DNA of 64,000 nt. It comes from Schmidtea nova (lineage: Eukaryota). Under the pieces are notes generated by a model. The model was not told the origin of the DNA and did not search any database. It worked only from the letters and a program-made list of their open reading frames with translations. Positions 2,307 through 48,164 of this stretch are shown here, in pieces. The stretch covers positions 209,374,001 to 209,438,000 of the forward strand of contig CM097882.1 of the NCBI GenBank assembly GCA_044892505.1, read 5' to 3'. Position numbers and translations under genes: made by a program. Position 1 is the stretch's first letter; each line of letters starts with the position of its first letter.

Positions 2307-2540
2307 TTACGCTTCTCTGACTGCTCCTTTTAAATATAGGGAAAATCTTTGTACAATTATCGACTGGCTCCATCCATAGGCTGTGGCGTAGATGTAGTAA
2401 TTCACCATAAAGTCGACAAATTCCATCGGATCTCCTCCATATTGTCTGACCGTGAGTTTCTGAAGATTCGCATATTTGTTGTCATTTCCCGTGTTGCTTG
2501 TGGACATAGGTGCATCATCATGATCATTTTGATTATTCAT
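2307..2540 (-). pseudogene. gag: Gypsy gag N-terminal fragment
   Basis: RQYGGDPMEFVDFMVNYYIYATAYGWSQSIIVQRFSLYLKGA resembles retrotransposon capsid N-domain (F.GD...F...F......W......LYL.G.A); the same motif occurs in gag at 8266. Confidence 0.75.
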
Positions 2541-2796
2541 TTTGTTTTCTGATTTTTTTGCTCCTCAATTGATAAAATGATCTGGTTGGCCCAACTTTTA
2601 CTCGTCTGAATTTCAGTGTATTACAATTATAAAATTTACCTTTTGTTTGAATTTTTAATAACAACTTCCTCTAATTTAATAAATTTTCATTCTTCCTCGT
2701 CAGCTTTGTACGATATATTTTCACAAATTTCTCTTTTTGAATTTAACAATTTACTAAATTTTTCAATTAATTTTCAGAAATCTTCCACCGACTTTT

Positions 2797-2815
2797 AATC
2801 ACGTCAGGCTCCCAA
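2797..2815 (-). promoter_or_regulatory. Primer-binding site, tRNA-Trp-like
   Basis: Minus strand reads LTR end CCCAACA-TTTT-TGGGAGCCTGACGTGATT, close to the tRNA-Trp complement TGGTGACCCCGACGTGAT. Confidence 0.6.
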
Positions 2816-2818
2816 AAA

Positions 2819-3045
2819 TGTTGGGTATTTATCAGTTAGTCGGTGCTGTTTGCCTGACTCCTTTGTGTTCTTATAGGAATTATTTAAAAACAACATAGTA
2901 AGATTTATTTGAAAGTGTGACACATTTTACAATAACTATTCAACACAATTCTTTGATAATAATAATTAACAAACACATTGCCAAAATAATTAAACAATCC
3001 ATGTGCAATATTAACAAAGACATATATTTCAAAGAAATAAATTTC
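2819..3045 (-). repeat. Partial 5' LTR of the minus-strand Gypsy element
   Basis: Terminus TGTTGGG at 2819 adjacent to the PBS; first ~60 bp resemble LTR ends at 40132 and 43860-43923; runs into the 25-bp satellite. Confidence 0.65.
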
Positions 3046-3335
3046 AAAATACCGCAACGTAATATATTTCAAAATACCGCAACATAATATATTTCAAAAT
3101 ACCGCAATGTAATATATTTTACATACCGCAACGTAATATATTTCAAAATACCGCAACGTATTATATTTCAAAATACTGCAACGTAATATATTTCAAAATA
3201 CCGCAACGTAATATATTTCAAAATATTTAGAATATATTACGTTACGGTATTTTGAAATATATTACGTTGCGGTATTTAAAATATATTACGTTGCGGTATT
3301 TTGAAATATATTACGTTGCGGTATTTTGAAATATA
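3046..3335. repeat. 25-bp minisatellite (CAAAATACCGCAACGTAATATATTT), orientation flips near 3228
   Basis: About 7 units in one orientation followed by about 4 in the reverse orientation. Confidence 0.95.
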
Positions 3336-3649
3336 TGTTGGATCCATCATTTGACCAACATTTGATTATATAAATAATAATAAGAAAATAAATACGAATA
3401 AATTAAATTAATATATTTGAAAGAAATTCCATTAAAAGGAAATAAAAGTAATAAATGATATTGTAAAAATTATAAGAAAACAAAATTAAGATGAAAAAAT
3501 ATAATAAGAAATGAGATTTAATGATTAAAATATATATGATATGTTTACAACAAATAATTAATTAAGAAATAAATAATAAATTGATTAAAACAAAATTCTT
3601 TACAAATAAATATATAAATAAATTGGTATAATGACCTTCAGCTTGACGC

Positions 3650-3700
3650 TGATTGGCCAACCGGTTGATCTGATCAGTATAAATACTGAACCAGAATCAG
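3650..3700 (+). promoter_or_regulatory. LTR promoter (ATTGG/CCAAT-like box + TATAAA)
   Basis: CTGATTGG...GATCAGTATAAATAC, conserved at 41666-41705 in the related solo LTR while the flanks diverge. Confidence 0.7.
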
Positions 3701-4860
3701 ACAACTAAGCACTTATAATTTCATAATTTTCTGAAACAAAACTTTTTTGCAGTTATCAGTGAATTGAAAGATATGGATTGAATTTTAGTATTCTATGTTT
3801 TTAATTTTTATCATGATTTTTTGTCATTGCTTATTGAAAAAATGTATGAATAATCACTGCCATATTAATTTTATATGATTTAAGCTTAGTTTTGGCTTCC
3901 TTCCACTGTGTAATCGGTGGAAGGAGGCGAGATGAATTATTTTTTTGGTATTATGATTTAAGGGGGCTCGTGTTCACCATGAAATCGGTGGAAGGACGCA
4001 GACTTCGCCTGAGTAGATTAAACTACTTCGTGAAGTTAGGCCGTCTTCATGGTATTAAGTGTCATGAAGAGGGTAGGATTTTTTAATGATTTATTACTGA
4101 GCAGTATAGCCAGATTACTAAAATTTTTATTATCAAATATATAGTATGATTAATCAAGAACTGAAAGAATTTTATTATTTAATAAATAACTTATAACTTA
4201 TAAATAACTTATTTCTTTTTGAGATTGCCATCGAGGATTTGAAGCGGGTGACGGCTGATATTTTTTGAAGGTGAAGGGTATAGTCTATTGAACACTTCCA
4301 AGAGCGATATCGTCCAGGTGACTTAGCACTGCTAGCGGATAAAAGGGTAGCCACCAACTGAATAAATCGAGGTAGATGCTCACAATTAGAGTAGAGCAGA
4401 TTTTAAAAATCCAAATCTTTGTAAAGGGTATCGTAGGAATAAGTGGTAGAAATGAGTGAAATTCGAACATTCTCCATATTAATTATCATTTCTGATCCAT
4501 AACAAATAGAACAAATTAAAGTCATCACAGCTGAACTAAAATTATGCACATTGAACAGCAGGTAAGTAGGTCCATTCCGATGTCAGCGTTAGTGTGGGTA
4601 GCCCGTAATGACCTACCGTATCTCATATTGATCGATCAACCAACTAGTGACTAAAATCAATGAAAGAAAGAAATTAAATTTACTATCCTGATCCCTGTAC
4701 ATAGGGCAGAAGAACTTATTTTTATATTTTGTAAATTATCAACCTGATTGCTGTAGATAGCACATGTACAACTGAATACAATAAATGAGATTTCTGATCG
4801 CGACAGTGTTGAAATATATAAAATGTATTTTACTTCACAATTTCTCATTTCCGTACCGGT

Positions 4861-5331
4861 TGGTTCAGCCCGGAACAAATGAAAATACAACCCATAAAAA
4901 ATCAATGATCTCAGCGAGCGGGTGAAGAATACAGAACTGAGCTTGAGGCAACAAAAATCGAGTTAAGAAAATGCCTCAAGGCGGTCACCGCGTCATTCAT
5001 AGACCTTGAGTTGAAGCAATTAATCCGACCAATTACCTATCAACATTGGTCGGAAGAGAAAGCAGGATGTTCAAAGGGAACAAATACCGAAGCTCCGGCG
5101 CAAGTTCTTGAAATCGAGATTCCGACTGTACCAAAAAGCTCATCAACAATCGAAATTAAAAAGAAGAAAAATAAGATGGGTGCCAGACAACGAAGGTGGA
5201 AGAAACAATTCGAGCAGAAAATGATCCAACATAACGATGATCTTCCTGAAATCGATCTATCGACAAACTTTGTTACATTTGATGACGATTTTTTGAAGTT
5301 TTTTGAATTAAATTTTGTTAAATTTAGTTAA
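4861..5331 (+). pseudogene. LTR-internal ORF of unknown function (coiled-coil-like + basic region), premature TGA at 4906-4908
   Basis: WFSPEQMK...SQRAGEEYRTELEATKIELRKCLKAVTASFIDLELKQLIRPITYQHW aligns with WFAPARMK...SQRTAEDYKMEWEATKIELWKCLHSVTATYIERELKSQIRPVTYQRW at 42797-43180. Confidence 0.75.
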
Positions 5332-5612
5332 CTAACGCTTATCGTTTGTAAAATTTATAGTTTTGTTATATTTTCTTTTGTGCTTAGATTTGTAAAGTAG
5401 GTAAAATAAAGTATTTATTAAAAATTTAAAAATTAAATTAAATCAAATACAAATTACATTGACAAAAGTGCTAACACAACTCGCTAAATGACAAACATTA
5501 GGAATATAAAACCCAGATATATAAACAATTTTTCGAATTATCTGTTGATATTGTAAAGAAGGGGGTAGGAAAATTAAAATTAAAGATAATGAATTCAGAG
5601 GAAAGTAAAGCG

Positions 5613-5845
5613 TAAGTCCTTCTATCGGCAGCAATGGACCCGTGAACATAAATGGGGAGTAGTTCTAGTGAAAGAGCTCACCTGCCCATCATTGTTCAAA
5701 CACCTTGCACATTTCCAACTCGATTATCCAGGGAAATAATCGAGGGTGCTTGTGTGTCGTGAAAGCATTTTATGTTTGGTCTTAGATAGAGGCATCCCTA
5801 GAGCGTTTATTATCTTTTTGTTTTAACCCATCCAGGACCACAACA
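5613..5845 (+). ncRNA. Conserved structured RNA element at LTR 3' end (copy 1)
   Basis: Several stems with compensatory changes relative to 43551-43787; shares the CCTTCTATCGG(C/T)AGC..TGGACCC core with 36229-36250. Confidence 0.7.
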
Positions 5846-5851
5846 TAAATT

Positions 5852-5870
5852 TGGGGGCTCAGCCGGGATC
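5852..5870 (+). promoter_or_regulatory. Primer-binding site, tRNA-Pro
   Basis: TGGGGGCTCAGCCGGGATC versus the tRNA-Pro complement TGGGGGCTCGTCCGGGAT, 6 nt after the LTR end. Confidence 0.9.
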
Positions 5871-6333
5871 AAAATGGTTTTTGTGCGAAAAGTTGAATCC
5901 AATAATAACAAGGAGTTTTAAAGTGCCCCTCAACCGAGAATGTAATTGATCTTTGTGTAAAAAGTAAATGCAATATCAACAGGGAATATCAACAGACGAT
6001 TAAAAATTGACATTAAATAAAATAAATAAACGTAAATAAAATATGTCGGGACGACAATTTGATGAAACAAGGGGAAGTTTTAACATCGGAAAACGAAACA
6101 TATCACTACTTTTAACTGACACAAATCGAGCAAATAGAGAAACAAGATATTGAAAATATTTATTATTTAGTAATGAATGACAAATAGAACAGCAAACATA
6201 TTACCAATATCAATTATTTAGCAATAAACGACAAATTAAAAGAAACGGAAGAATTTCTAAACGCGGAAAAAAAACATACGAGGAATTATGCGAGAAAATA
6301 AGTCGAATAAGAGAATCCGGATTCAAAGAACCC

Positions 6334-6684
6334 ATGACACAAACTGAAGAAACAACAGAGCTAATAAAGATAATGCAAAGAATAGACAAATTAGATATAA
6401 CTACTAGATACAAGTGGTACCGAGTGCGATTAGAAAATGCTGATTTAAACATAAAATGCAGACAATTAGAGCAACAATTAACCCCAACATACAACAAATG
6501 GACAATGCAAGGAACCGAGACAGCTAAGAAATTTAAACTATGTTACATATGTCGAGAAAGAGAAAATAAAATCATGTTTTTACCTTGTGGACATTTTCGG
6601 TTTTGTAGAATCTGTGCGACCAACTGCGACAAATGCCCGATGTGCAATCTCGAAATAAGTGAAACAATTGTCGTGTATTTATAA
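6334..6684 (+). CDS. C-terminal RING finger (C3HC4, IAP/MDM2-like) protein, probably 5'-frameshifted
   Basis: CYICRERENKIMFLPCGHFRFCRICATNCDKCPMC followed by ISETIVVYL at the C-terminus, typical of IAP-type RINGs. Confidence 0.9.
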   Translation: MTQTEETTELIKIMQRIDKLDITTRYKWYRVRLENADLNIKCRQLEQQLTPTYNKWTMQGTETAKKFKLCYICRERENKIMFLPCGHFRFCRICATNCDKCPMCNLEISETIVVYL

Positions 6685-7175
6685 TAAATAAATTTTGAAA
6701 TTGAGTAATATTATTTGTAATGAATAAAATATGAGAAGTAATAATGGCAATGGCAGAAATCATGATAACAATTAATGTTTATAAATAATTTTTGAGCTAC
6801 TCACGAGTAGTCCGTTAAGCACCCATTAAGCACCAACTGATCAACTTACCCGAGATGTATAGAAAGGGTCCCATCGCGGAAATTGGAAAGCTTTTGTGAT
6901 GTGACTGATCACCCCATCTTGCATTAGTGGACCAATGCGATCTTTTTATATGTTTTGGTTGGGGCGAAAGTGGGGGAAAACTCAATGAGGTTTAGGTGCA
7001 CGCAGAAAATATAAAAAGAGAGAATAGAAAACTGATCAGTAGGAGTAGAGAGAATAGTAAACGAATAAGCAGAACGACAGTTAATGTGATAACTCGTATA
7101 AAAATGGAGATAACTCAGCTGAGAATAAGTTTATGATAACTAGCGAAGTGGATAATTGCGGTTAACCGGTTAAAC

Positions 7176-7495
7176 AGATTAGTTGAATACCCTGTATAAT
7201 GGGTCAAGGGCCAATGAGCCAGATTAGTTGAATACCCTGTATAATGGGTCAAGGGCCAAGGAGCCAGATTAGTTGAAAACCCTGTATAATGGGTCAAGGG
7301 CCAATGAGCCAGATTAGTTGAATACCCTGTATAATGGGTCCAGGGCCAAGGAGCCAGATTAGTTGAATACCCTGGATAAAGGGCCAAGGGCCAAGAAGCC
7401 AAAGTAGTCGAATACCCTGAAAGAAGGGTCAAGGGCCAACAAGCCAGATTATTTGAGAATACCCTGAAATAAGGGTCAAGGGCCAATGAGCCATA
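7176..7495 (+). repeat. 45-bp tandem repeat (~7 copies) in the element leader
   Basis: AGATTAGTTGAATACCCTGTATAATGGGTCAAGGGCCAATGAGCC units start at 7176, 7221, 7266, 7311, 7356, 7401, 7446. Confidence 0.95.
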
Positions 7496-8265
7496 TTAGA
7501 ATTACCTAGTTAGGCAGGTGATTATCCTTTAGGAAGGTATTTTCCCTAGGGAAGGGCCAAAGAGCCAGGGCGTAGAGAGCCAAGTGAATAAGTGAATAAA
7601 TTAAATTAGGGCATAGAGAGCCAAGTGAATAAATAAACAACAGAGAGAATATAAGGCAGAATTGTAGTTGTCGACGAAGTAAGAATAGTGAGCACTAAAG
7701 TTTGATTAATACGAGTAAAGATGATTATGTAACCTAGAGATTCAGTATGCATACAAGTGGAAATAGAAATAGGAGGATTTAGAGTTGACCGGAAAAACCG
7801 GTAGAAAATCGTAAGAAGAGTGAGTTGTGATGACATAATGAATAGTGATAAAATGATAATTGAGTCAGGAGAACTCTGGGGAATTAAAGCGTTTGAGCGA
7901 CAAATTAATTTGGGAGACCGAGGGAAAAGTAATGAATTTATTTGATAACGATAGATAATTATTACGACCATATAGATAATTGTGACCAGTCAATAGATAA
8001 TTTAAATAGACTAAAATAAAGGGGAAACCGGGAATGGGGAAATAATGGAAACCCAATAATGAGGAATAAAAGCGCAACGATAACAATGATGTATCGTTGA
8101 AGTGACTTTTTAATTTAGATATACAGAACAGAACAAGTCAAACTAACCAACCAAGCAATCAGAATACGATAATAGAGAGACAGGAAAATTGATAAATTAC
8201 AGAAAAGTAAACCAAGATCAAGAGCAGCTAAAACTCAAAAAGTTGATAATTCACAGCGAAATAAA

Positions 8266-10041
8266 TTGAGATCAAGAGCAGTCAGTACTACAACTCAAAA
8301 AGTTGAAAAGTCACAGAAAAGTAAATCGAAACAAAGAGCAACCAGTGTTACAAAGAAAACAAATCCTAAAGGAAGTAAATCAAGAAAAGTAATAGTAGAG
8401 AAGTCCAAAATCGAAAACAACAAATTATCAAAAACTAACGAAAGTGAAACAGAAGAAAGTTCGAGTGAAACCTACGACAATTATAATAATACTGAAGCAT
8501 CAGATAACGAGTCAATAAACCCAAAAGAAAAAGAAGCAGAAATCAATAAAAATTCAAACGAAACGAATAACGAGCATAACAGTGAAACAAAAGGAAACGA
8601 GAGTAAAACGACACAAGACAGCGGAATCGAAATGAACGAACCTAAAGAAGAAATCAAAGATAAATTTACCGGAGAACCATTTAATGGAGATGCCAGCAAG
8701 TTGGAAACGTTTTTAAAAGAATTTGGTATATTTGTAGAAGTGTGTAAATGGAAACCAGAAACGATAAGGAGCAGAATTCAGTTATATTTAAAGGACAGTG
8801 CGTTAGATCTATACTTAGAAGCTAAAAATTCGGACGACCAACTCGATAGTTGGGAAGAGATAAAGAAATTTTTCCAGCAAACTTTTGGAATAAATAAAGT
8901 ATTAAATGAAGCCTTTACAGAATTTTCAATGAGAAAACAAAAAGTTAATGAATCAAATGCAGTATATGCAAGTGAATTAAAGAAATTGGCTAAATTAGCA
9001 TTCAATCAAAATAGTCCCATGAGTCCAGAATTGATGGCAGCAATTTTTGTGGGAGGACTGAGAAGACCCGATATAAGAGCACAAGTTGGATGCCAAGGTT
9101 GCAAAACAATAGATGAAGCGTTGGAAGTCGCCAACAGATTTGAATTACATATGATCGGAAGCGAAGGAAGAATTTACCTAGCAATGGATACGACACAAAA
9201 TGAACAAGCAATAAAGATAAATAACCACATTTCGAATTCACAGCAATTGAACCGACCACCACCTCAAAGGAGAAATGAGGGAAACAAAGTACAAAATTAC
9301 GGAAATCAAAATAATTACAATACGCAAGGACAGACAAAACAATGTCAAACTTGTGGAAAGTTAGGACATTGGCAACAAGAATGTTTCATAAACTTAAATT
9401 GTAAAAAGTGTGGAATAAAAGGACATTCGGAAAGCAGATGTTACCTAAATTCATGTTATAACTGTGGACAACCAGGCCACATGGCAAAAAGCTGCCAACA
9501 ACCAAACAATCAACGAAGGAACTGGTCGAACAACGGAAATCGACAAAATTATGCTAATCAACAGAGTAATTATAACCAGAACAAAAGTACCACCAAGGAA
9601 ATACATTTGCTACAAGAAGTTCAGAGATTGACAGAGTTAATAAATAATACACCGAGAGGAAATCAACAAACAAATCAACAACAAATTAATATGATGAGAA
9701 AAACAGAAAGCGAAAATGAACGATTAAATCGAGAAAGTCAAGCACGACATGCTCAAGAATGGGCTAGAATACAAAGAGAAGACGAACAGAAACGACAAGA
9801 AAGAGAACGGCAACCATTGAGAATTAATATGATGAGAGCAACAAATCAAACAAGAGACAACAAGGAAGATATTGAGCCGGAAACAAACCAAATAAACCCA
9901 AATCCGGTAGATGAAGAAAACCAAAAAGAAATATTGCAAAAAAACGAAGAAGTTATCAAACAAAAAAGGATGTTGGTAGTCATGCCAAACGATCATGTAT
10001 TTCGATTTGACTATGATGAAAAAGAGGAAGTAGAGTATTAA
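8266..10041 (+). CDS. gag: Gag (capsid + CCHC zinc knuckles)
   Basis: PFNGDASKLETFLKEF...WKPE...LYLKDSA capsid motif; knuckles CQTCGKLGHWQQEC, CKKCGIKGHSESRC, CYNCGQPGHMAKSC. Confidence 0.92.
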   Translation: MRSRAVSTTTQKVEKSQKSKSKQRATSVTKKTNPKGSKSRKVIVEKSKIENNKLSKTNESETEESSSETYDNYNNTEASDNESINPKEKEAEINKNSNETNNEHNSETKGNESKTTQDSGIEMNEPKEEIKDKFTGEPFNGDASKLETFLKEFGIFVEVCKWKPETIRSRIQLYLKDSALDLYLEAKNSDDQLDSWEEIKKFFQQTFGINKVLNEAFTEFSMRKQKVNESNAVYASELKKLAKLAFNQNSPMSPELMAAIFVGGLRRPDIRAQVGCQGCKTIDEALEVANRFELHMIGSEGRIYLAMDTTQNEQAIKINNHISNSQQLNRPPPQRRNEGNKVQNYGNQNNYNTQGQTKQCQTCGKLGHWQQECFINLNCKKCGIKGHSESRCYLNSCYNCGQPGHMAKSCQQPNNQRRNWSNNGNRQNYANQQSNYNQNKSTTKEIHLLQEVQRLTELINNTPRGNQQTNQQQINMMRKTESENERLNRESQARHAQEWARIQREDEQKRQERERQPLRINMMRATNQTRDNKEDIEPETNQINPNPVDEENQKEILQKNEEVIKQKRMLVVMPNDHVFRFDYDEKEEVEY

Positions 10042-10127
10042 TTAATAAAGTAAACAAGACGATTCTGGGAAGGACAAAACTACCCCGAGAAGCATTTTTA
10101 CAGACAGAAGACGAAGCGGAGATAAAA

Positions 10128-11247
10128 TTGAAATCAACCGACATCTGGGAAGATTTAGAAGTACCAATGAATAAAATGAATTTTACTGTTATCCGAGAAA
10201 CAGACGAAAACCAAGATAAAGCGAAACCAAAACCGGTAACAAAAGTCAAAAGCAGGGCATTAAAGATATTTGAAGAGAGAATCAAACAGAGAAAAGCAAT
10301 AGAAATGAAAAAACGAAGAAGCTAAATAGAAGAACCAGAAAACAATGACAAAAATGAAGAAATACCACCAGAAAATGTACTAAATAAAGTAGAACAGACA
10401 GCACATATAAACATGTTAAGAAACAACTAGAGAATTTTCAGATGTAGAAAGTGACAGTGATGTCAGTAGTTTAGCAGCAGATATGCTAAAGGAACCAGAA
10501 AATGAAGACAACAAGATAAAAGTAGCGAAGACGCCAGAAAATATTCAAATAAAAGAAGATGAAATTGAAAAACTATTGGATAATGCGTTAGAAGTGATTT
10601 ATAACGAAGAATTTATTGATAAAAAGCGATATCGAAAATTTATAAAAGCAGTATTACGAATGAACTACAAAGAATGTTTACAAAGTCGGGAAGTAGAGAT
10701 ATTATCAGGATACGTCGTCAAGTTATTAGAAGAACCACTCCACGAATATATTATCTTGATAGAAATAAACAAATGTTCACCAAGAATTTGGATCAAATCT
10801 ACATGCACAAACGAAATTTATCGATGGGTGGAAGACAGATTGGGAAGTTCATATAAAAACAAATTCATATATTCGGGAAATGAACTTGTAGAACGAGGAA
10901 CGCATTTGGTAGCAACAGGCCTATGGCCAGGAGAGATAACAACATTATCAACATGCGACAATAAGAAAGAGGAGAATTTACAAGAAATCGCAAAGGAAGC
11001 AAATACGTGTTTTGAGATGAGAATTAAACCTCAATTAATAGAGAAGAAAGAAAGAATTCTCAGAGGAAATTTAAATTCACTAATAGAACAAATTATTCAA
11101 CAAATCGACAAAAATAGGAAAGAATTAATGAGAACTGAATATGAGAAAGTAAAACAATGCATCAAAAATATACGAGATACCAGCCATACGAGATATTCGC
11201 CGTACAAAACTTGGAAAGAATCGCAAAAATTGGAAAGCGATGTTTAA
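10128..11247 (+). pseudogene. Accessory coding region of unknown function, broken into pieces (10128-10325, 10326-10430, 10483-11247)
   Basis: Continuous A-rich coding-like sequence with stops/frameshifts; no recognisable domain. Confidence 0.5.
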
Positions 11248-12259
11248 ACGAGGAGAAATAGGAGATTTGAAAATCAAAGTGAAATTACCAAACGAAGACA
11301 CAAAGGAAATTGAAGTAATCGCGGATTGCACAGTAGAAGAATTAGTTGATGTTATCTATGAGACTTTATTACAACGCGAAAAAGAAGACGAATTGGAAGA
11401 CGATATTATCATAAAATATAACGAACACGTACTAGGAGATCATGACGAGAGACGAGTATATAAAATTGGTATATGTGACAACTATCAAACAATCCACGTT
11501 ATCAGAATGGATGATTCACCAAGAGAAACACCAAAAGACGAAAAAAGGAAACAAGAACGTCGAAGAGAAGAGATGCACAAATTGAGACAAATAGTAGAAA
11601 TTTATCGAAGATGGGAGAAACAATGGGATGATAAAGAGAAATGCTGGAAAGCAAAAGGAGATATATATGAAGAAGGATTTAGACCAGAAATGGAAGACAA
11701 ATATGAACCAGAAACCAGAAGAGTTTGTATGGTGACAAGAAAAGTCATGCCAACAGATTTAGATGGACCAGAAACCGCAGCAATATGGTTAGAAACGCAG
11801 AGACGAAAAGCTAACGAACTCATAGAATTATTAAAAGGAAATTTACAAGGAAAAAGGCGAACGATCAAAGGATTAGCCGAATTTTTCGTAGCAAGCGGCG
11901 AAGATATAACCAGTTTAGGAAAAGTAGCAAAAGCAGTAGCAGAATATAAACGAGTTAACGAGTGGTGCCCAGAACAATTAGACAATGTAATCAAGAAATG
12001 GAGAAACCAAGAAAACGTCCAAGAATCACCGCAGAAAGTACATTTAAAGATAATATATCCAGATCGGGAAAAGGAAGAGCTTTGGGTAAGATTTACTGAA
12101 AAGATTCGAGATGTGAAAAAGAGATTGAAATATGAAACACCATTTCACTTACAACATCAAGGAAGATCATTAGAAAACGATTTGGAAATCGGGATAACGC
12201 CAGCACAATTAGATCTCGCAAACACGTTAACAGTAGACGCAATAGCAGATCAACCATAA
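11240..12259 (+). CDS. Protein with two ubiquitin-like (beta-grasp) domains
   Basis: N-terminal LKIKVKLPNEDTKEIEVIADCTVEELVDVI...IKYNEHVLGD...YKIGI...TIHVI and C-terminal LKIIYPDREKEELWVRFTEKIRDVKKRL...LQHQGRSLEND match the UBL pattern. Confidence 0.7.
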   Translation: MFKRGEIGDLKIKVKLPNEDTKEIEVIADCTVEELVDVIYETLLQREKEDELEDDIIIKYNEHVLGDHDERRVYKIGICDNYQTIHVIRMDDSPRETPKDEKRKQERRREEMHKLRQIVEIYRRWEKQWDDKEKCWKAKGDIYEEGFRPEMEDKYEPETRRVCMVTRKVMPTDLDGPETAAIWLETQRRKANELIELLKGNLQGKRRTIKGLAEFFVASGEDITSLGKVAKAVAEYKRVNEWCPEQLDNVIKKWRNQENVQESPQKVHLKIIYPDREKEELWVRFTEKIRDVKKRLKYETPFHLQHQGRSLENDLEIGITPAQLDLANTLTVDAIADQP

Positions 12260-12314
12260 ACTTAAAGAGAAAAGAGTAAAAGAAAGTGAAGACACTCAGC
12301 AGCTAAAGAACACG

Positions 12315-12956
12315 ATGCAGATCACGCCAGGAACAAGTGCAAGACAGTATGAAACCACATCAATAAAAGTCCAAGAAAGAACTGTACCACAATCATATGG
12401 CGTAGAAGAAATCTTAGCAGACAGCGATGACATACTGGAAGAATTAACCAATTTGACAAAAGTAAAAAACAATAATATCTTCGAAAGAGTTCAAGAATTA
12501 CCCACAACGTCACAAGTAATCAATGCCGAAGATGAAGTCGAACAAGAAATAGAGATAGAAGAAGTGAACGAAATACCTGAAGAAGAAGCAAGAGGAACAA
12601 ATACAGAAAACGAACAATTAACACAAGAAATGGAAAGATGGTGGGAACAGAGAAATAATGAACCAAGAGATGTTACAGAAGAAACTAGACGAGAGACAAG
12701 ATTAGTAGAAACAGGTACAACAATGGATAGACGACCTACAGGTAGACCGAAGACGGATCCAGCAAACATAATCAACAAAACCAAAGAGGAAAGGAGACAA
12801 GAGAAATGGGAATTATGTTTTAGGAAGCTCAACAAAATAGCAGAAGCAAACGACAAAGAAATAACGCAAAAATGTCAAGGCGAAGGATGGATATCAAAAA
12901 CACTAATGGAAATACTGGCGATAATTGATCCAGAATTAAAAGATGGTGGAGAATAA
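12315..12956 (+). CDS. Acidic/low-complexity accessory ORF
   Basis: 213-aa Glu-rich ORF, no recognisable domain. Confidence 0.4.
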   Translation: MQITPGTSARQYETTSIKVQERTVPQSYGVEEILADSDDILEELTNLTKVKNNNIFERVQELPTTSQVINAEDEVEQEIEIEEVNEIPEEEARGTNTENEQLTQEMERWWEQRNNEPRDVTEETRRETRLVETGTTMDRRPTGRPKTDPANIINKTKEERRQEKWELCFRKLNKIAEANDKEITQKCQGEGWISKTLMEILAIIDPELKDGGE

Positions 12957-13300
12957 ACGAAATAAGCGACAAGGCTAAAGCACAACGCAATCGCACCAAT
13001 CTTACCCGAACTGATAAAAGAAAAGGCAAAATCAAGCCATTTAGATTGGCAAGGGACCACAAAGTTGATAAAAAAGTTAACTGAAGATGCAGAAAACAAT
13101 AATAAATATGTGATAGCAATTGCGTATACAATCTACAACCTATTAACGTTGAGTAGAGGTAAACCAAAATCTAAAACAATAGAGAAGCATATAAAAATAC
13201 AGCAAGCATCATAGCAAGAAAAATAGAACCATACGTCATCAGTAGAGGAGGATGGGAAACATTTGCAAAAACGAATCAAAGAAACAGTCAATCAAAGAAT

Positions 13301-15432
13301 ATGAAAAAGAAATTCAAAGAAATTCTAGGAGAATTAGAAAAAGAAAAGTCCGGAACAGGAAGTGGAAAATCTTCACTGAACCTGAATTCAATCATAATGA
13401 TGATATTAATATGGCTAATTAGTGCTGAAGGAGTAACGGCGTTCGAAGTATTTGATTGCGATCAAATGACATTAGGAGAAAAATATTCATTGAGAGGAAC
13501 TGAACAATGCAAGGATGCAACTCCAACAGAATTAAAGGTATTAAATAGTAAACAAATATATCACGTATATCAAGAAGCCGAATTAATAAAGACGACAGTT
13601 AATGAATGTAAAATATATAAAACAAGATTTGCTTTTTATTGTGGACACCATCACTAATCTGCAATCGTAATGCCAGGAACAGAAAGAGAAGCAATAATGT
13701 TACAAGGAGAAGATTGCAATAAATTTTTCAAACATGGAGAAGTCGAAACAAGTGATCAAATAAAGATAAAAGGAAAAGCTGGAGTAATACTACAACAAAC
13801 CTACTATGTAGCAGAAGCTATCACAGGAGGAGAAGGTTATTGTCAAGGAACAACATATCCGATATTTGGAGTACCAGCAACCAACATGGTAGTAATCAAC
13901 ACATATACGGTATAATTGAAAGCATATGAAGCATATTTTGACCCAGCAACAGCAATGTGTAAAATTGAAGCCAGTACTTGTCAAACCGGTATGTCAACTT
14001 TAAGTACAGAGCACGAGCAAATGAATGCCAATTGCAATTATTAAAAGAAGCAGAATTCGACGAAGTAAAAGGAAAAATCTTTCAGGAAGAAGATGATGAC
14101 GAAGTAGCAAGAGACAAACGTCTACAGGAGACAGTAAAAGGAGAGAAACAGTTCAAAACTAAAATACGAGAAAAAGAGGTAAAAATGAGAGATACGCCAA
14201 CAGTATTGGTTACATCGAACGCAGATATAGGGATGAGGTTTGTAAAAGGAAAACCGGCATTAAAATGTGGTGTATCTATGTTAGAAACTAATTACCCTGG
14301 TATTTACGTGTCAAGGCAAGCAGCACCAAATGCAAAACCTAAGGTAGATACTACAGACATCAAATTGCACGTATATTTAAATAACAAAATGGATTTTTTA
14401 TTTCATAAAAGTCAAGCATCAATGGAAAAAATATACTACGATCTCATTAACAACGACTGTATATTAAATCGAGAAATATCAAAGACGAAATTAGCAGAAG
14501 CAATTACAAACCCAGATAGTGCGATGCTATTACTGCCACTTAACGAAGGTCATTTTGGAAGAGTAGTTGAAGAAGTTATGTATGCATATATATGCCGAAA
14601 GACACACGCAAATGTAGCAACAACGACTAGATTACGACGAGGACAATGTACCAATGAGCTAAAGATTGAATATAAAGGAAAAATAAGATATGTGCAACCA
14701 GTAACAAGGATCATTAATCCATTCAGTTTTGAACCAAACCCTTTCAATTGTAGTAATGCATATGGACCATTATATCAGAAACCAGACGGAAATTGGGTCA
14801 TGTTCCCGTCAAGAACAGAAGTACAACCGCCTAGAGAATTCGAGCTGATGCAACTGTCAAAAAGACAAAAATTTTCCAATGTAGATGTAAATAATGGAGG
14901 AATTTACAGTGCAAAAGATCTTGAAGCACCACGACAAAATATATTATTCCCAGCTAGAAGAGAAGCGGTACTATCTAGTATTGTAACGATAACAGGAGGA
15001 ACAAGCTATCAAGGAGGACCAAATTATGAATTATTATTGTCACCAGCACATTTTAAGAAAGCAACAGAAAATATGATGAAAGCAATGTGGGGACGATTTT
15101 TAATTTTCGGACAGATGATGGCCGGAATACTAGGTGTAATTTTGATCATACAAATAATACGAGTGATAATCACACAAATGCTAGCATGCTTTGATATTTA
15201 CAAAAGAGAAAAGAAAGTTAATTGGAAACTAATAGTAGGATTTTTACCCTTCTTAGCTAAAACGATGGTATTACATGGTCACTCCAAAGATATTCATAGA
15301 ATAAAACGATTATTAAAAATACTGGCAAAAATGAAAGGAACAGATAAAGACGTGGGGAGAAAATTCAAAAAGATAATGAAAAATGAGCAAGCGAGACTGC
15401 AATTAAAAAGAGAAAGAAAAGGATTATGGTAA
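13301..15432 (+). pseudogene. env: Envelope glycoprotein, chuvirus (Jingchuvirales)-like class III fusion protein; 2 in-frame stops + 1 frameshift
   Basis: Signal peptide then AFEVFDC...YSL...EQC; ECKIYKTRFAFYCG; CILNREISKTKLAEAITNPD...GHFGRVVEEVMYAYIC; CTNELKIEYKGKIRYVQPVTRII; C-terminal TM GQMMAGILGVILIIQII. Stops at 13655-57 and 13913-15. Confidence 0.8.
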
Positions 15433-15585
15433 AGAATAAGAGGAGATAAAACTCATAATGATTCCAGTGATGACGATGATAACAATGACGACTGCGAAGG
15501 AGGACAAAGATACAGAAACCAAGCACCACAATATAACGACAAGAATCCAGTAGAAGCGTGGAAATGTTACGCACCTCCACCAACA

Positions 15586-17115
15586 ATGTATCAAGAACCA
15601 CTACAGACATTAGGACCCAGAACAATGCAAATGATGCCAATGCCAAATATATACCCAGTTATACCAGAAGATTATAAACTAAGACGATGTAGAAGTATGG
15701 ATCCGCAAGGAGATTCACACACAATTGCAGTTATGTCATCGAATATAGGACCAGTATTAACCACAACCATAGAAATAAACGGAAAAGAAATAGAGGCAAT
15801 GATAGATACAGGAGCAAACATTTCGGCGATAGATATTAAATGGATACCGCAAGAACAGAGACAAGAGATTGAAAGAACAAATGTTCATGTAATTGCATGT
15901 AGTAAAGAGATAGTTGAAGTTGCAGGGAGATGGTGGGTGAAAATACGACACCAAAATATAGAAATTGAAACATATGTAGCAGTAATACCAGCTTTAAGCG
16001 TACCATGTATAATCGGAACAGATTTAATGCCAACATTATTCAAAGAAATAATAATTGATCTTGGAACAATGAGATTAAAAGACAGAACAGGAAAAATATG
16101 TGCCATGGAAGCAAAAGTAATAAGCTCAAAACAAATGATAATACCAGCAAGAAAAGAGAAAATATGTTATGTCAAAATATATCCTACAATAGAAGGGGAC
16201 GTGGTCTTCGAACCAATCAAGAGATTCAGAATAAATATGCTCAGAGCAGAGGAAATTAACACAGACAGTCAAGTAGACAGTGAGAAAATTGAGGTTGACA
16301 AAGAAATCGTACGAAAAGCCAAGGAAATAAACGAAAGATGGGAAATCAAACGAGAAAAAGACGTATTATGGGATATACGACAAATAATTAGCGATTACAC
16401 ACGAGGATTCCCAACCAAACCAGTTATAATCGAATTACTAAGAAAAATACCAGAGATACTCATATTACAAGATATAGGAGGCGCAACCGCACTACACAAT
16501 GCCATAAATTGGGGTAAAACGGAAAAGGTGAAAGAATATTTGAAAATAGCAAAAGAAACGAATCAAAATCTCGACATTGGAAATCGAGAATTGGAAACGC
16601 CAATGATGACAGCAACACTAAACTTAGCAGATAAAGAAATAGTAGATATACTGATAAAGGCCGATTTCAACTGGACAGCTCGTGATAGAAGAGAATATAC
16701 AGTTTTGAACCACGCAATAATGAGCGCAAATCAGATGATACTAAAACATATAACCACCAACCTCACATGGGAAATCGATGAATTAATCAAAGTAGAAATT
16801 ATAAAGGAAGCAATTCGGAAAGGAAACACAAGAACCATACGGAAACTAATACAATGGAAATGGCCGAATAACGAAACATGGGTATTAGACATAAATAAAG
16901 AATTTAGCGAAGGACAGAACGCGCTATTGAGATACCTATTAGAATTTACGTGCGATCAGAAAACAATGTTAGCACTAATAAACAGAGGGAAAATAAATAT
17001 CAGTAAGAACGAGGAAGAATACAAACTAGAAATCAAAAAGAAAGCGTTATTCAGGAAAATTTGGATATGGTGCCAAAAACAATTACGCCAAGACATTTAC
17101 GCTACAAGGATTTAA
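15586..17115 (+). CDS. Retropepsin aspartic protease fused to ankyrin repeats
   Basis: IEAMIDTGANISAI and CIIGTDLM protease motifs; GATALHNAINWG, ETPMMTA, YTVLNHAI ankyrin repeats. Confidence 0.88.
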   Translation: MYQEPLQTLGPRTMQMMPMPNIYPVIPEDYKLRRCRSMDPQGDSHTIAVMSSNIGPVLTTTIEINGKEIEAMIDTGANISAIDIKWIPQEQRQEIERTNVHVIACSKEIVEVAGRWWVKIRHQNIEIETYVAVIPALSVPCIIGTDLMPTLFKEIIIDLGTMRLKDRTGKICAMEAKVISSKQMIIPARKEKICYVKIYPTIEGDVVFEPIKRFRINMLRAEEINTDSQVDSEKIEVDKEIVRKAKEINERWEIKREKDVLWDIRQIISDYTRGFPTKPVIIELLRKIPEILILQDIGGATALHNAINWGKTEKVKEYLKIAKETNQNLDIGNRELETPMMTATLNLADKEIVDILIKADFNWTARDRREYTVLNHAIMSANQMILKHITTNLTWEIDELIKVEIIKEAIRKGNTRTIRKLIQWKWPNNETWVLDINKEFSEGQNALLRYLLEFTCDQKTMLALINRGKINISKNEEEYKLEIKKKALFRKIWIWCQKQLRQDIYATRI

Positions 17116-18482
17116 CCGATTTCCAAGAAAAGTATAAAACGATAATAAAGGAATACAAGAAAATAGTGGAGATATTAAACGATCCAGAAAAATTTAACCA
17201 AGCGATAAACCAGAAAGCGGAAAAGAGTAAAAGGATACTCACACCATTGTTCAACGCAAAAATAGATTACCAGGAAAGATTAGATGCAATACACAAAAAA
17301 GCAAAAGAACTATTACCAGAATTCAAGGATACTAAATACGCCTTAGAAATACTTGGCGCGATAGTAGAAAAAGTACACGCGTATGTAAAAGGAGTGTGCA
17401 ACGCAGATGATATAACAATTATAAAAAGAGAAATGCCAGTTGCATTTTTATTAACTAAGGAAAGAATAATGCCGATTCATAGAGCATTGAGAGCAGGAAA
17501 AGACAGTAAAGTAATCAAAATCGCAAGATTAATGCATCAATGTGGATGTGACATGAATATGATAGACGAAAAAGGAGACACCCTCATGATATACGCAGCA
17601 AGAGCAAAAACAAAAATCAGAGTATTAAAAGAGATATATAAAGCAAGCGCAGGATTAATCGGAAAAACTGTCAAAGACAACACAATATTGGACGTGACAT
17701 TATTAGGTCCAAATTGGGTAATGTTGAATTTCATTAAAACGATAACAAACCAGGAAGAGATAGATTATTTAACAGAGACTGTAAAACGACCCAGCGTATT
17801 GACAATGATGCAAAACATCAAATTAACAGAAGAAGTACTAAACTGGAAAATACTAAATACCAACAAACCAGCATTCAGAATCAACAATTTCATGGAGAAA
17901 AACCAAAATTGGTGTATCAAAAGCACACTATTAACTTATAAATGGCCTGAAATTGTAGAAATTTTCATGAGAAGAGAAGACCTGAGATTTACAAACAAGC
18001 CTAAAGAAACGGAAAAGACAGGAAAATGGAAAGAACTGATGAGAACACACCTCCAAAGTTGGATAAAAGCCAAGAAAGAAATTATACAGTTCCAGTTAGA
18101 CAACAAAAAGATACCCGAAAATATAGAATTCCAAGAATTCGAAGCAAGTAACCTAGCAACACTATACTATGCAAAACTAATAGAAGCAATTAATGTCGAG
18201 GACGACATTTTTAACGAGCCAGGGAGAGATAATAATACTGACAATGATGATGACGATGAGGAAAACAAGGACGACGAGAGAAATAATGACGATGATGATG
18301 ATGATGAGAACAGTCACGAAAATCCAGAAAACCACGAACAAACCAACAAAGAAGATGAGAGTCAAAAGAGAAATACAAAGAAGCAAGAACCCAAAGAACA
18401 AAGAGAAGACAGCGATAAAACAATCATGAAAAGAAAAGAACAAGTTACAAAAGGAATCCCTTTTTCAGACCAGAAGTATTAA
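17061..18482 (+). CDS. Ankyrin-repeat protein with acidic tail (probable frameshifted continuation of the PR-ANK ORF)
   Basis: MPIHRALRAG...DEKGDTLMIYAARA...KDNTILDVT; overlaps the previous ORF in the -1 frame. Confidence 0.75.
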   Translation: MDMVPKTITPRHLRYKDLTDFQEKYKTIIKEYKKIVEILNDPEKFNQAINQKAEKSKRILTPLFNAKIDYQERLDAIHKKAKELLPEFKDTKYALEILGAIVEKVHAYVKGVCNADDITIIKREMPVAFLLTKERIMPIHRALRAGKDSKVIKIARLMHQCGCDMNMIDEKGDTLMIYAARAKTKIRVLKEIYKASAGLIGKTVKDNTILDVTLLGPNWVMLNFIKTITNQEEIDYLTETVKRPSVLTMMQNIKLTEEVLNWKILNTNKPAFRINNFMEKNQNWCIKSTLLTYKWPEIVEIFMRREDLRFTNKPKETEKTGKWKELMRTHLQSWIKAKKEIIQFQLDNKKIPENIEFQEFEASNLATLYYAKLIEAINVEDDIFNEPGRDNNTDNDDDDEENKDDERNNDDDDDDENSHENPENHEQTNKEDESQKRNTKKQEPKEQREDSDKTIMKRKEQVTKGIPFSDQKY

Positions 18483-20350
18483 TATTCGCAATAATCATAA
18501 CACTCGTGGGACAATGTGAAGCAACGGAACAAGAGACATCAGTAGAAATGGAAAGCTCAATACAAAAAGCATCAACACAAATGATGAATTCAAAGGATAT
18601 TGAACAAGTATGTTGGGTAAAAACGAATTCTCGGAAATAGCAACCCATTACGATGCATAGTCCCAGAACCCGATCAAAAAACCATAATAATAGACGAAAT
18701 GGATATGGAAACATGGTACAGGATAAGTACAATCAAAAAACCTAAAGACGCAAAATCACACAAAACAGTTACATGCCAAGTATACGAGACACCTAAAGCA
18801 GCCAAAATAGTTCGATATGAGTTCACCAATGGAATAGACCTTCCAGTACCATTTTATTTTAAAATAACAAGAGCACCAACAATAAGAAAAGTCTTACAAC
18901 AACCAAGAACCAAAATAACAACACCGAGTATAAGGAATACAACAGATAAACCAGAAGCAAAAAGAAGGAATACGACGGATAAACCAGAAGCAAAAAGACA
19001 TACGAAACAAACCACAAGAGTAATCTATAATCCCAAAGTGTTATGTATAGCACTCATATTAACAATATTGAAGCGATTGGAAGAAGGGATAGAGATGGAT
19101 ACAATGACATTAGTAGACCTAGAAGATACACAAACGACAAATCAGAAATGTTGGTTTAGAAACGACGAGAAATTAGAATTAAGCGAACCAAGAGCAAGTC
19201 AGAAACAGGAAGCAGGGAAAACAAGCAAAGTAAACAAGATAGTAAAGATAAAAACAGACAGAACTCATAAACTATGTTTATTAGAAAAAGAAAGAAATAA
19301 GAAAGGAATAACCAATTGTAAAACATTTCAAGCAGGAAAAATAATAACGTTCTTAAGAAAAGTAGAAACAAACAAAATTTCCAGAAATGAACCATAACGT
19401 TAGAAATAACGGGAATAGAACAAAACGTAAAAGGAGTATGCTGGAGAAAATACGAGAAAGAAACGAATAAACATAAATCATCACAATGTCAAACAGTCAG
19501 AGGAACAACTGCAGTACAAATAAAAAGCTTAGAAAGAAATCAAACCTATAAAATATGCCTAGTAAAGGAAAATGATCAAATAACGAGAGAAGATTTAGAA
19601 TGCAGAATATACAAAGCGCCAAACAGAGTGAAAACCAATAGAACAATACGAAAGAATAAAAGACAACAAAAACCGAAGCATACCACTACCGAAAGTCAAA
19701 CAGAACCAGACAGGAATACCTCAGTAACACTTATACTTTGGAAATTAGATAAAAGAACAGTAGAAATATGTTGGTCAATGATCCAGAGACACGAAGGAAG
19801 ACAGCCACAACAATGCGAAAAGATGAACAAAGAAGAGGAGATCAGAATGGAGAACCTACAATTGGACAAAAAATACGAAATATGCGCAATAGAGAAGACA
19901 GATATATTCGGAAAGCAACAAGAAAGATGTAAAACATATTATACACCTACCAATACTACGATCAAAAGAAGAAGCAAGAAACTAACCTTCGGAGAACTGA
20001 ATCAAACAAAGGAAGAAAAGGAAAGTGAGGAAACAATAATAGATTCTTATGCAAAATGGAAACCAGAAAAAGTAATCCAAGAAGTCAAAAGGAAACAACA
20101 AGAACGACAACAATTGGAACTCAAATTAAAAGGACAATATGGAACAATGATCAATCAGAGCAAATTCACCCAAATCAATCTTAACAAGCAAGGAAGAGAA
20201 CTAATTGGAGTAGGAATACTGGCAGTAAGCGTACCAGTAATAATAATATTAGCAATAATATGGCTATTGGAAAAAATATTTATGGAAAAAGAAACCAACC
20301 AGACAATGGCCAGGTATAAAAATCATGAATTGCAAAATCAAAATACCTGA
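18450..20350 (+). pseudogene. Type I membrane protein with ~4 fibronectin type III-like repeats
   Basis: Signal-like VLIFAIIITLVGQCEA; repeated VCW...I..L....Y.IC......C..Y..P pattern; TM LIGVGILAVSVPVIIILAIIWLL; broken by stops and frameshifts. Confidence 0.6.
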
Positions 20351-20842
20351 AGAAGTGAAGAAAGAATTCCAAAGAAGAACCAAAGGTAAAGAATTTTGGA
20401 AGCAAATAGAAGACGAAAAGCGACACGATGAAAAGGCAGTGATGATAGTATAGAGAGTGGGATATGACTGTAAATAATATTGTAAATTACAAAGCATTAC
20501 CGTATATAATATGGGTATTAATATTATAGAGTATATAAAAAGAGAAAAGAGAAAAAATAATATTGTATCTAATTTAGAAAATGAATGTACGAGAAGAAAC
20601 AACCGAAATGACTATGCCTATGAGATGGAAAGCACAATGCGAAACGTTAGTCCGATCAATCAATGCACTACAGAATCAACTGGGAGAGAAGCAAAATATA
20701 TTAGCAGACTGTAAGAACAACATTTTTGAATAATTACATAAAATAGAAGAGCAACAGAGAATAATAACAGAAATGACAAGAGAAAATCAGAGATTATGAC
20801 AAACAATGGAAATAAATCAACTATCAAGAAGGAAAGAATCAG

Positions 20843-21300
20843 AAATGAGTCATCGATGCGTCATGGTGTGAGTCTACAATGAGTCATTAGGGTGAGTCAC
20901 CAATATGATGAGTCATCGATGAGTCATCGTTTTAAAATAAAAAAATTAAAAATTTTTCTAAAAAATAACTTGTCAGAAAATAACTGAGAGTGTGATGAGT
21001 GATACAAACCAAAAATAATTTCAAAATAATAAAATTGAGAAAGTTCAAAAAAAATTCTTATTTTTGTATGAGTCATAAAAATTTTAGATGAGTCATCGAT
21101 AAAGAATCGATTGGTCAAATAAGAAACAATTTTTAAAAAAATTTAATGAGTCATCGGTGAGTCATATAAATAATTTTTTAAAAAAAGTTGTAGAAAAAAA
21201 ATTGTAGAAAAAACAGAATATTTTTCGAAAATAATAATAAGTCATCGTTGAGTCATCGATGCGACATAAAAAAATTTGAAAAAAAAGGTAAAAAAAAAGG
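20843..21300 (+). repeat. TGAGTCA-rich ~0.5-kb repeat, copy 1
   Basis: About 10 TGAGTCA motifs, often as TGAGTCATCGATGAGTCA; near-identical to 21728-22250 and 23368-23930. Confidence 0.9.
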
Positions 21301-21320
21301 TAGAAAAAAGATTTTAAAAA

Positions 21321-21727
21321 TATATTACGTTGCGGCATTCTAGAAATATATTACGTTGTGGTATTTTGAAATATATTACGTTGCGGTATTTAAAATATAT
21401 TATGTTGCGGTATTTTGAAATATATTACGTTGTGGTATTTAAAATATATTACGTTGCGGTATTTTGAAAAATATTACGATGCGGTATTTTGAAATATATT
21501 ACGTTGCGGTATTCTAGAAATATATTACGTTGCGGTATTTTGAAATATATTACGTTGCGGTATTTTGAAATATAATACGTTGCGGTATTTTGAAATATAT
21601 TACGTTGCGGTACTTTGAAATATATTACGTTGCGGTATTTTGAAAAATTTTACGTTGTGGTATTTTGAAATATATTACGTTTTGTATTTAAAATATATTA
21701 CGTTGCGGTATTTTGAAATATATTACG
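21321..21727. repeat. 25-bp minisatellite (ATATATTACGTTGCGGTATTTTGAA)
   Basis: About 16 tandem units; same family as 3046-3335; further short arrays at 22255-22345 and 22870-22925. Confidence 0.95.
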
Positions 21728-22250
21728 TTTGAAATGAATTATCGATGACGTCACTTTTTTCAAATTTGAAATGAGTCATCGATGCGTCTTGGTGTGAGTC
21801 TACAATGAATCATTAGGGTGAGTCACCAATGTGATGAGTCATCGATGAGTCATCGTTTTAATATTTTAAATTTTTAAAAATTTTCTAAAAAATAACTTGT
21901 CAGGAAATAGCTGAGAGTGTGATGACTTTTACAAACAAAAAATAATTTCAAAATAATCAAAATTGAGAAAGTTCAAAAAAAATTCTTATTTTTGGATGAG
22001 TCATAAAAATTGTAGATGAGTCATCGATGAGTCATCGATTGGTCAAATAAAAAAAATTTTAAAAAAATTGGTGAGTCATCGGTGAGTCATAAAAATATTT
22101 TTTTAAAAAAAATTGTAAAAAAACAGAATATTTTTCGAAAATAATAATAAGTCATCGATGAGTCATCGATGCGTCATAAAAAAATTTTGAAAAAAAGTTT
22201 GAAGAAAACAGAATATTTTTCGAAAAAAAGGTTAAAAAAAGATAGAAAAA
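21728..22250 (+). repeat. TGAGTCA-rich repeat, copy 2
   Basis: Starts with ATCGATGACGTCAC; collinear with copies 1 and 3. Confidence 0.9.
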
Positions 22251-23367
22251 AAATATAACATTGCGGTATTTTGAAATATATTGTTGCGGTATTTCGATAT
22301 ATATATTACGTTGCGGTATTTTGAAATATATTACGTTGCGGTATTTAAATATATATTATTTTTAAAAATATTTTTAAAAATATATTTGAACCATCTCCTT
22401 ATAATTATTTTGAATTTTGTTGTGAAACAAATAATTAACTTTAATTGAAGTTTAATCAAGTTTAATCAACAGTGGCTAAAATAATAAAAAACGGCGAGTA
22501 TATGCTTTGGTTTTTCTGACACTAATTTGTTAAATAATAATAATTATAAAGAAGTTGTGTCTGAGTACAGAATTTTGCGCAATATCATTTTATTAACAAT
22601 CGTGATGAATGAAACTAAAAAATAAAATAACGATTATAATATGAGAAAATGTTATTAAATGAACGAAAAATCCAAGTTTTCTTCCTCGGTTGACTCGGCC
22701 ACCATCACGTTTGAGTTCTTTGAATCGATTCTTGGACTATAATATCCTTCGACGACGAAGAGCCAGAATTGATGCACGTTGCGATTTCATTCTACAATTC
22801 AAAAATAAATATTTTATTGGCAACGTAAATACAAAACACATAATCAAAACTTGTTGAAGAATCTTTTGAAATTTATTACGTTGCGGTATTTTGAAATATA
22901 TTACGTTGCAGTCTTTTGAAATATATTTCTTTGAAATATATGTCTTTGTTAATATTGCACATGGATTGTTTAATTATTTTGGCAATGTGTTTGTTAACTA
23001 TGTGGTTGTTTAAAACTAAGTATGAAATTATATAGCATCGTGTTCATATAGCGGTGGCGGTTCGAATGATACAATTGGTACTTGGATTTTCGAAATTTTT
23101 GAAATTTTGAATTTTTGGTCCAAACTTAATTTTTTCGATCGGACAACTTAAAAAATGGTATTACCGTGTGCGTCACTGAAATGTAGAGGGACCGATACTA
23201 CTTTTAACCTTAGTACTTTAAGTAATTTGTTTTTGTTTCAAAATTTTATTTTTTGATCAGACACCTTCAAAAATGTGACCATCGTGTGCGTCACTGAAAT
23301 GCCTTGCGAACGATACCAAATTTGACCTTGTTATTTGTGCTTTTAAAATTTTAAAAAAATTATTTAA

Positions 23368-48132: not shown

Positions 48133-48164
48133 AGTAGGGAAAAGTGAGCGCACAGCCCCACTTT

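Follow-up and report, generated by a model that had tools for sequence, protein, structure and literature searches.

Reassorting in-frame deletion classes in a giant enveloped Burro-type retroelement family of the planarian Schmidtea nova

The 64,000-nt stretch of Schmidtea nova DNA analyzed here (hereafter the window; GCA_044892505.1, contig CM097882.1, positions 209,374,001 to 209,438,000, forward strand) contains, at 3336..20845, a copy of a giant enveloped retroelement that has a 5' long terminal repeat (LTR) and lacks reverse transcriptase (RT) and integrase (IN). Taken by itself, the window copy is an unremarkable fossil; what is notable is the family behind it. This family comprises complete, RT-less, env-less and doubly deleted copies which, as comparison of their sequences suggests, have likely spread by co-packaging in shared particles and by recombination at reverse transcription. 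In established LTR-element biology, a genome without RT depends on RT and IN provided in trans, and deletions and recombinants result from template switching between co-packaged RNAs. Our best reading of the analysis is a trans-mobilised, recombining swarm resembling that of the mouse IAP 1-delta-1 elements. The cellular-type cargo of the family is largely known; the new part is a modular family structure that reassorts in frame.

Complete and deleted copies of the family

Five full-length copies, picked via a 3' probe, continue past the point at which the window copy is truncated, through three more open reading frames (ORFs) and into a 3' LTR. In the RT-less copy G, a 4,118-aa ORF extends from gag to a tail of FN3-like repeats and a transmembrane (TM) segment and is followed by a RING-zfTRAF-MATH ORF of 483 aa (MATH_2, E=2e-21), a coiled-coil ORF of 368 aa and a TM ORF of 189 aa. 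Copy G and the other two-LTR RT-less copies have no pol in any ORF, and pol is therefore not hidden 3' of the break in the window, as the first-pass annotation had offered as one of two explanations. The RT-less form has a full length of about 25,050 nt and complete copy O of 28,231 nt. RT-positive copies, which were first recognized by 3 kb of extra spacing, carry the RT, RNase H (RH) and IN block in frame between the protease (PR) and the ankyrin repeats (ANK), where Pfam detects the three domains at E=7e-38, 2e-38 and 3e-11. The complete ORF1 of 5,147 aa is organized as gag-UBL-UBL-BCL2-env-PR-dUTPase-like-RT-RH-IN-ANK-FN3x4-TM, in which UBL denotes a ubiquitin-like domain, and is accompanied by the RING, TRAF, coiled-coil and TM ORFs. 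The dUTPase-like segment has no Pfam match and is assigned by its position and its likeness to P0002. P0002 is a database protein labelled as derived from a Flavobacteriaceae metagenome-assembled genome, yet it is an env-PR-RT-RH-IN retroelement polyprotein and is probably eukaryotic contamination of a bacterial bin.

The family has TG...CA LTRs, a tRNA primer binding site (PBS), target-site duplications and PR-RT-RH-IN order, as expected of Ty3/Gypsy elements. Recovery of full-length copies from the source genome and a profile check for RVT_1, RNase H and rve, both proposed in the first-pass annotation, provided two-LTR RT-less copies together with complete 28.2-kb copies whose pol block is conventional. 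The cargo does not come from unrelated nested insertions; it belongs to the element and is in frame in these same complete copies and in a sister family. Of the two parts of the refuting condition set out in that annotation, only the one on a conventional pol thus holds. The truncation of the window copy at 20844 would fit a pol located beyond it, but the chance that this, or nested cargo, explains the element is negligible, as RT-less copies with both LTRs contain no pol at all, complete copies carry it between PR and ANK, and the cargo lies within a single open frame of 4,118 or 5,147 aa.

Near-identical LTRs indicate that these forms are young. LTR pairs of the RT-less copies C, D and G are 99.4-99.9% identical and the copies have 4-bp target duplications, and therefore RT-less elements inserted recently. 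The corresponding identities are 99.86% for env-less copy N and 99.96% for complete copy O, and a doubly deleted copy with a 2,323-aa open frame has LTRs that are 100% identical over 2,851 nt.

Two deletions remove the RT block, type G of 3,021 nt and type W of 2,973 nt, both of them multiples of 3 and both situated at microhomologies. Type W is represented by the window copy and six other fetched copies; these are older (85-93% identical to copy O) and basal in trees, and one of them has LTR parts that are 99.05% identical over 2,427 nt. Both skips occur as joints in contigs of public sequencing runs (the 3,021-nt skip in 3 of 4 runs and the 2,973-nt skip in all 4, from one study and of unspecified kind), and the skipped segments end in AA..AT and TC..CA rather than GT-AG, which together argue against assembly error and splicing. 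A further deletion of ~5.4 kb, which begins immediately downstream of gag and ends immediately upstream of PR, removes the UBLs, BCL-2-like domain and env in frame and has at least two breakpoints. All deletion classes keep gag, PR and the ANK-FN3-TM tail. The same env junction is found with and without RT, in copies N and L113 and again in L116 and L114. Every combination of the deletions is represented.

A census based on exact patterns, whose counts are lower bounds, identified at least 46 type-G copies; among 24 matches at the intact or type-W site it found at least 18 RT-positive and at least 6 type-W copies, and among 70 matches at the env site at least 23 env-deleted and at least 47 env-intact copies. 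Of the 46 type-G copies, 11 are also env-deleted, 29 are env-intact and 6 are unassigned, and the 18 RT-positive copies divide into 10 env-deleted, 6 env-intact and 2 that were resolved by sequence, one as complete and one as env-deleted. Of the roughly 70 copies that could be classified, no more than 7 are complete. Candidate numbers from the first look (795-1,059 with internal probes; 1,478 with RT) were rejected as copy numbers, since the RT probe mixes in the sister family: only 17 of its 40 scored matches reach at least 91% identity, and the remainder are the sister family at 85-86%. Loci L151 and L161 gave no match and were dropped.

The classes interleave in trees of env (29 rows), ANK (37 rows) and RT-RH-IN (14 rows), from which copies covering <90% of a region were left out. 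Monophyly of the 16 type-G env rows is rejected (approximately unbiased test, p-AU 4e-6), with the qualification that a tree model is put under strain by recombination. Between two RT-less copies at loci far from each other, env and ANK are nearly identical, a pattern that direct copying of RT-less genomes would produce.

All modules are under purifying selection, the deleted classes included. Across the 31 young copies, with variants counted per codon column and a crude site count, the nonsynonymous to synonymous ratio (dN/dS) of shared variants is 0.00-0.37 for all 15 modules, cargo among them (UBL 0.07-0.09, BCL 0.13, env 0.08, ANK 0.11, FN3 0.28), and 0.10-0.22 for the accessory ORFs. Env variants shared among RT-less copies but found in none of 6 complete copies comprise 21 synonymous and 4 non-synonymous changes; RT-RH-IN variants limited to env-less copies comprise 8 and 0. 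The old type-W lineage has the same pattern (59 to 23, dN/dS 0.10).

Proposed mechanism and alternative explanations

We propose template switching at short microhomologies as the origin of the deletions, and packaging of heterodimeric RNA as the cause of the reassortment of junctions. RT and IN would be provided in trans by RT-positive copies of the family or by sister family Y, which is a plausible source because it has the same PBS, the same sequence before the 3' LTR and an RT that is 96% identical to that of the window's family (env 85%). Family Y elements are 28.3 kb long with a 5,140-aa ORF1, complete for gag-env-PR-RT, and LTRs that are 99.9% identical. As in IAP 1-delta-1, an open frame may be favored in cis; in-frame junctions and low dN/dS bear only indirectly on a need for cis translation of the fused ORF. 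Motifs resembling I-N-M-(L/M)-R recur at module borders; the polyprotein may be cut at these by PR and at hydrophobic segments by signal peptidase, and the deletions would then stop beside the cleavage borders. RT-less genomes would add Gag and Env, and env-less genomes would restore a plain gag-PR-pol order. More speculatively, we put close to an even chance on RT-less copies providing a surplus of Gag and Env that is beyond the reach of an element with a single ORF, with env-less copies supplying Pol. A more far-reaching version, in which an enveloped element is splitting into complementary genome classes like a nascent multipartite virus, joined by a gag/env/RT-less satellite selected only for protease-released IAP/TRAF/ANK/UBL cargo that favors the stem cells carrying it, appears rather unlikely.

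Several considerations weigh against the swarm interpretation. Family Y prospers without such a swarm and may be the main helper: no env deletion was found in any of its 11 informative RT-positive copies (12 sampled, all picked by RT). In-frame deletions are to some extent a product of chance: of the ORF's direct repeats of 7-9 nt, 48-55% are spaced in frame, and four in-frame events would arise by chance roughly 6% of the time. The low dN/dS of the deleted classes could have been inherited through recombination from complete lineages that are extinct or unsampled (6 of about 7 were sampled), the site count carries no transition correction, and exact-pattern counts under-count old copies.

One alternative is that the deleted classes are purely defective parasites, comparable to defective-interfering genomes, which are mobilized in trans, contribute nothing, and owe their frames and low dN/dS to recombination with complete copies. 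This explanation, to which we assign a substantial probability somewhat short of even, departs from our own only in the final functional step, and is consistent with the interleaving of classes in trees, the abundance of in-frame microhomologies and the success of family Y as complete copies. It accommodates less readily that RT-less env-bearing copies outnumber complete ones by ~4-5 to 1, yet env variants found only in the RT-less class remain predominantly synonymous, and that the old type-W lineage repeats this pattern. Complementation is preferred, but stands about even with pure parasitism. One option in the first-pass annotation was a helper-dependent virus-like particle for the delivery of immune- or ubiquitin-modulating cargo; with the BCL-2-like domain, apoptosis would be a further target, and other cells the recipients. 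Helper dependence of the RT-less form agrees with our results. In these copies, purifying selection does preserve gag, env and the whole cargo, the protease motif is intact, and the border motifs may represent protease sites. A dedicated delivery particle is nonetheless improbable, as complete copies and family Y carry the cargo just as well, none of it is specific to the RT-less form, and env-less and doubly deleted classes coexist with it, the RT-less form being one among several classes that arose by in-frame deletion in an autonomous family. Retro-copying of spliced subgenomic RNAs would account for breakpoints near module borders and for the recurrence of env breakpoints at one site, but the absence of GT-AG ends from the skipped RT segments and the position of the junctions within microhomologies make it very improbable.

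A single ORF yields Gag, Env and Pol one-to-one, and a population of RT-less and env-less genomes would, if complementation holds, set their ratios at the genome level and allow changes between an intracellular and an enveloped way of life. Class-specific markers for trans-complementation, co-packaging and cell-to-cell spread are available in the junctions, and purifying selection on BCL-2-like, TRAF and IAP cargo in non-autonomous elements is relevant to the idea, already published, of Burro interfering with apoptosis and ubiquitination in its host.

The window copy and related families

The window copy is dead, old and 3'-truncated, and its RT block was deleted before decay and truncation. 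Compared with a complete copy, it has 5 premature stops and 24 indels, of which 18 have lengths not divisible by 3; its separate ORFs are frameshifted pieces of one polyprotein. All parts listed in the first-pass annotation were found in the order it gave, on the plus strand. The 5' LTR (2.5 kb, TGTTGG...ACAACA, 3336..5845) is bounded by genomic LTR matches, of which 40 were scored for its 3' end and most stop at 5845, and is about 67-70% identical to LTRs of young copies in the aligned parts. Within it, 4909-5331 is the remnant of a conserved ~197-aa LTR ORF. This ORF is 197 aa long in copy O (L064), where it is conserved (shared-variant dN/dS 0.13) and has no convincing match in Pfam. The PBS (5852..5869) is complementary to the 3' end of host tRNA-Pro(TGG), for which there are 1,105 pattern matches genome-wide, confirmed as tRNA by ARAGORN. 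A long 308-bp tandem array starting at G000:C1:459609706 (L141) holds the listed matches to this primer tRNA. An accessory RING-finger ORF of 167 aa (6181..6684; Pfam zf-C3HC4_3, E=1e-11) and a 45-bp tandem repeat in the leader (7175..7499) precede the polyprotein.

The polyprotein begins with gag (8176..10041), which has three CCHC knuckles (Pfam zf-CCHC 6e-11; Retrotrans_gag, at 1e-4, is below the cut-off). The two UBL domains (approximately 11264..12250) are below Pfam thresholds in the family, and their identity is supported by a profile of 9 family repeats that matches single-domain chains of ubiquitin and ISG15 in the PDB at E ~1e-4 to 1e-5. A frameshifted BCL-2-like domain (approximately 12830..13270), absent from the earlier parts list, precedes env and is suggested by a family profile against the PDB and by a low-confidence fold model (pLDDT 54), whose top Foldseek matches are consistently BCL-2 family members, none at E<=0.001. 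The UBL and BCL-2 scores are weak but consistent. A signal peptide, the env fusion glycoprotein and its TM anchor (13390..15330; hydrophobic segments placed from a complete copy) are broken here, with env matching Pfam Monjiviricetes_fusion (PF24664) at E=4e-48. The aspartic protease (15763..16035; Pfam RVP 6e-9) retains its DTG motif. The type-W junction, at 16226..16231, lacks part of the dUTPase-like segment together with RT, RH and IN, and is followed by ankyrin repeats (16240..18200; Ank_2 3e-9) and by a hydrophobic segment, four FN3-like repeats and a TM segment (18480..20280). An AlphaFold model of one repeat (pLDDT 77) supports the FN3 identity, its Foldseek matches being mostly FN3 domains with TM-scores of ~0.6-0.7, none at E<=0.001; Pfam did not detect the repeats and a sequence search against the PDB gave nothing significant. 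None of the F families, P0001, P0002 and family X was matched by a profile of the repeats, and homology of the C-terminal segment of P0002 to the tail is accordingly unsupported. As the annotation had stated, RT and IN are absent: Pfam found no RVT_1, RNase H or rve among 13 ORFs scanned from 3336-20845. An unrelated dispersed repeat cuts the element at 20844..20845, just upstream of the position of the TRAF ORF, so that the TRAF, coiled-coil and TM ORFs, the 3' LTR and the target duplication are missing. ESM Atlas searches returned only leads below 0.9. RNA records listed for the window stretch amounted to none, a result that carries no weight as to expression.

Other Burro-like elements accompany the family. 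Family X (L081-L100, L154-L160; e.g. G000:C1:11619664-11643799) consists of ~24-kb LTR elements with the same PBS and was found via the BIR domain, with the best 150 of 1,295 first-look candidates scored. Its ORFs encode UBL-PR-ANK-TM-FN3, TRAF, BIR-RING and several coiled-coil or TM proteins. Eleven of 12 sampled BIR matches belong to it; in the stretches examined (for 7 copies, only the 10 kb upstream of BIR) none of the 11 has RT or env and 10 have no gag. LTR pairs are 99.0-99.97% identical in three copies, copy X3 and the gag-bearing copy X2 differ by 1,176 nt in frame, and shared-variant dN/dS is 0.13-0.23, except for TM-FN3 (0.52). No autonomous family X copy turned up, without a systematic search for one. 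Smaller autonomous env-Gypsy families of ~16-17 kb (L041-L060, L078-L080), many of whose copies have an open frame, encode gag-UBL-UBL-BCL2-env-PR-RT-RH-IN-TM tail in one ORF of ~3,400 aa, and their 3' ORF presumably contains exonuclease-like motifs. Env-Gypsy families found with PF24664 (6 loci) were rejected as helpers on the basis of 0.85-kb LTRs, a different PBS and 35% env identity.

Elsewhere in the window, the minus strand of 1-3335 holds another, unlike Gypsy element, also decayed; its PBS lies near 2800, and the 25-bp tandem repeats of its LTR recur at 21318-21729 and 22251-22927. A Tc1/mariner transposase (364-aa ORF, DDE_3) flanked by inverted repeats occupies 46202-47634, and a second transposase fragment 26162-26722. 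A large near-perfect inverted duplication of very low GC around an N stretch (48120-62777), with ORFs for DNA polymerase B of organellar or viral type, is either a Polinton-like or palindromic element or an assembly artefact.

Comparison with known systems

The recognition of a giant enveloped Burro-type element in the first-pass annotation accords with the published architecture, which taken alone would point to a planarian-like host. The Burro section of PMC6431247 already describes gag-Ubi-BCL2-env-PR-dUTPase-RT-RH-IN with ankyrins, including the placement of env before the protease. Burro/GYPSM1 elements of planarians share with the present family a giant ORF1, gag with three CCHC motifs, Ubi/SUMO-like and BCL2-like domains, env between gag and PR, a dUTPase-like segment, RT-RH-IN, ankyrins, multi-kb LTRs and MATH in an accessory ORF (PMC6431247). 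The Dugesia tigrina element described there has 5,140 aa and MATH in an accessory ORF, a size close to that of ORF1 here (5,147 aa when complete, 5,140 aa in family Y). Unlike in Burro, MATH is here part of a full RING-zfTRAF-MATH ORF downstream of ORF1. The family is Burro-type rather than Burro1 itself, because its total length (28.2 kb against >30 kb for Burro) is below 30 kb; its likeness to Burro is drawn from published descriptions. The BIR domain, a Burro1 trait, was absent from the 8 ORF pieces of copy G, and BIR-RING occurs in related family X. BURRO1 expression is under PIWI control (PMC8532177), and PMC11410931, where it touches on Burro, treats it only as a >30-kb repeat. The Burro section of PMC6431247 does not mention an FN3-TM tail or in-frame RT-less or env-less classes. 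Nor did the literature covered describe these or a gag/env/RT-less IAP satellite; the paper defining Burro-1 to -4 and its supplements, which lie outside that coverage, may describe such forms.

Large retrotransposon derivatives, ETn/MusD and VL30 are mostly non-coding or contain host DNA. Unlike those non-autonomous LTR elements, the classes described here keep open frames of 2,300-4,100 aa under purifying selection. Features in common are mobilization in trans and the retention of intact LTRs and a primer site, as described for large retrotransposon derivatives (PMC6431247) and for ETn/MusD and VL30/MLV (PMC6466679). Errantiviruses with GAG-ENV-POL order and a gB-type env are found in Platyhelminthes, Nematoda and Bryozoa (PMC13524379) and are likewise Ty3/Gypsy elements with env between gag and pol; the terms Burro, planarian and ankyrin do not occur in the main text of that paper.

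The closest parallel is the mouse IAP 1-delta-1 element, in which an internal deletion has created a fused ORF; this non-autonomous form dominates new insertions and its fusion protein is reported to act in cis (PMC6466679). In both systems an in-frame internal deletion is associated with recent insertion of elements without their own RT and IN, and proteins are needed in trans (PMC6466679). IAP 1-delta-1 represents one deletion class of an env-less retrovirus, whereas in the present family reciprocal classes and double deletions reassort in an env-bearing, single-ORF Gypsy element.

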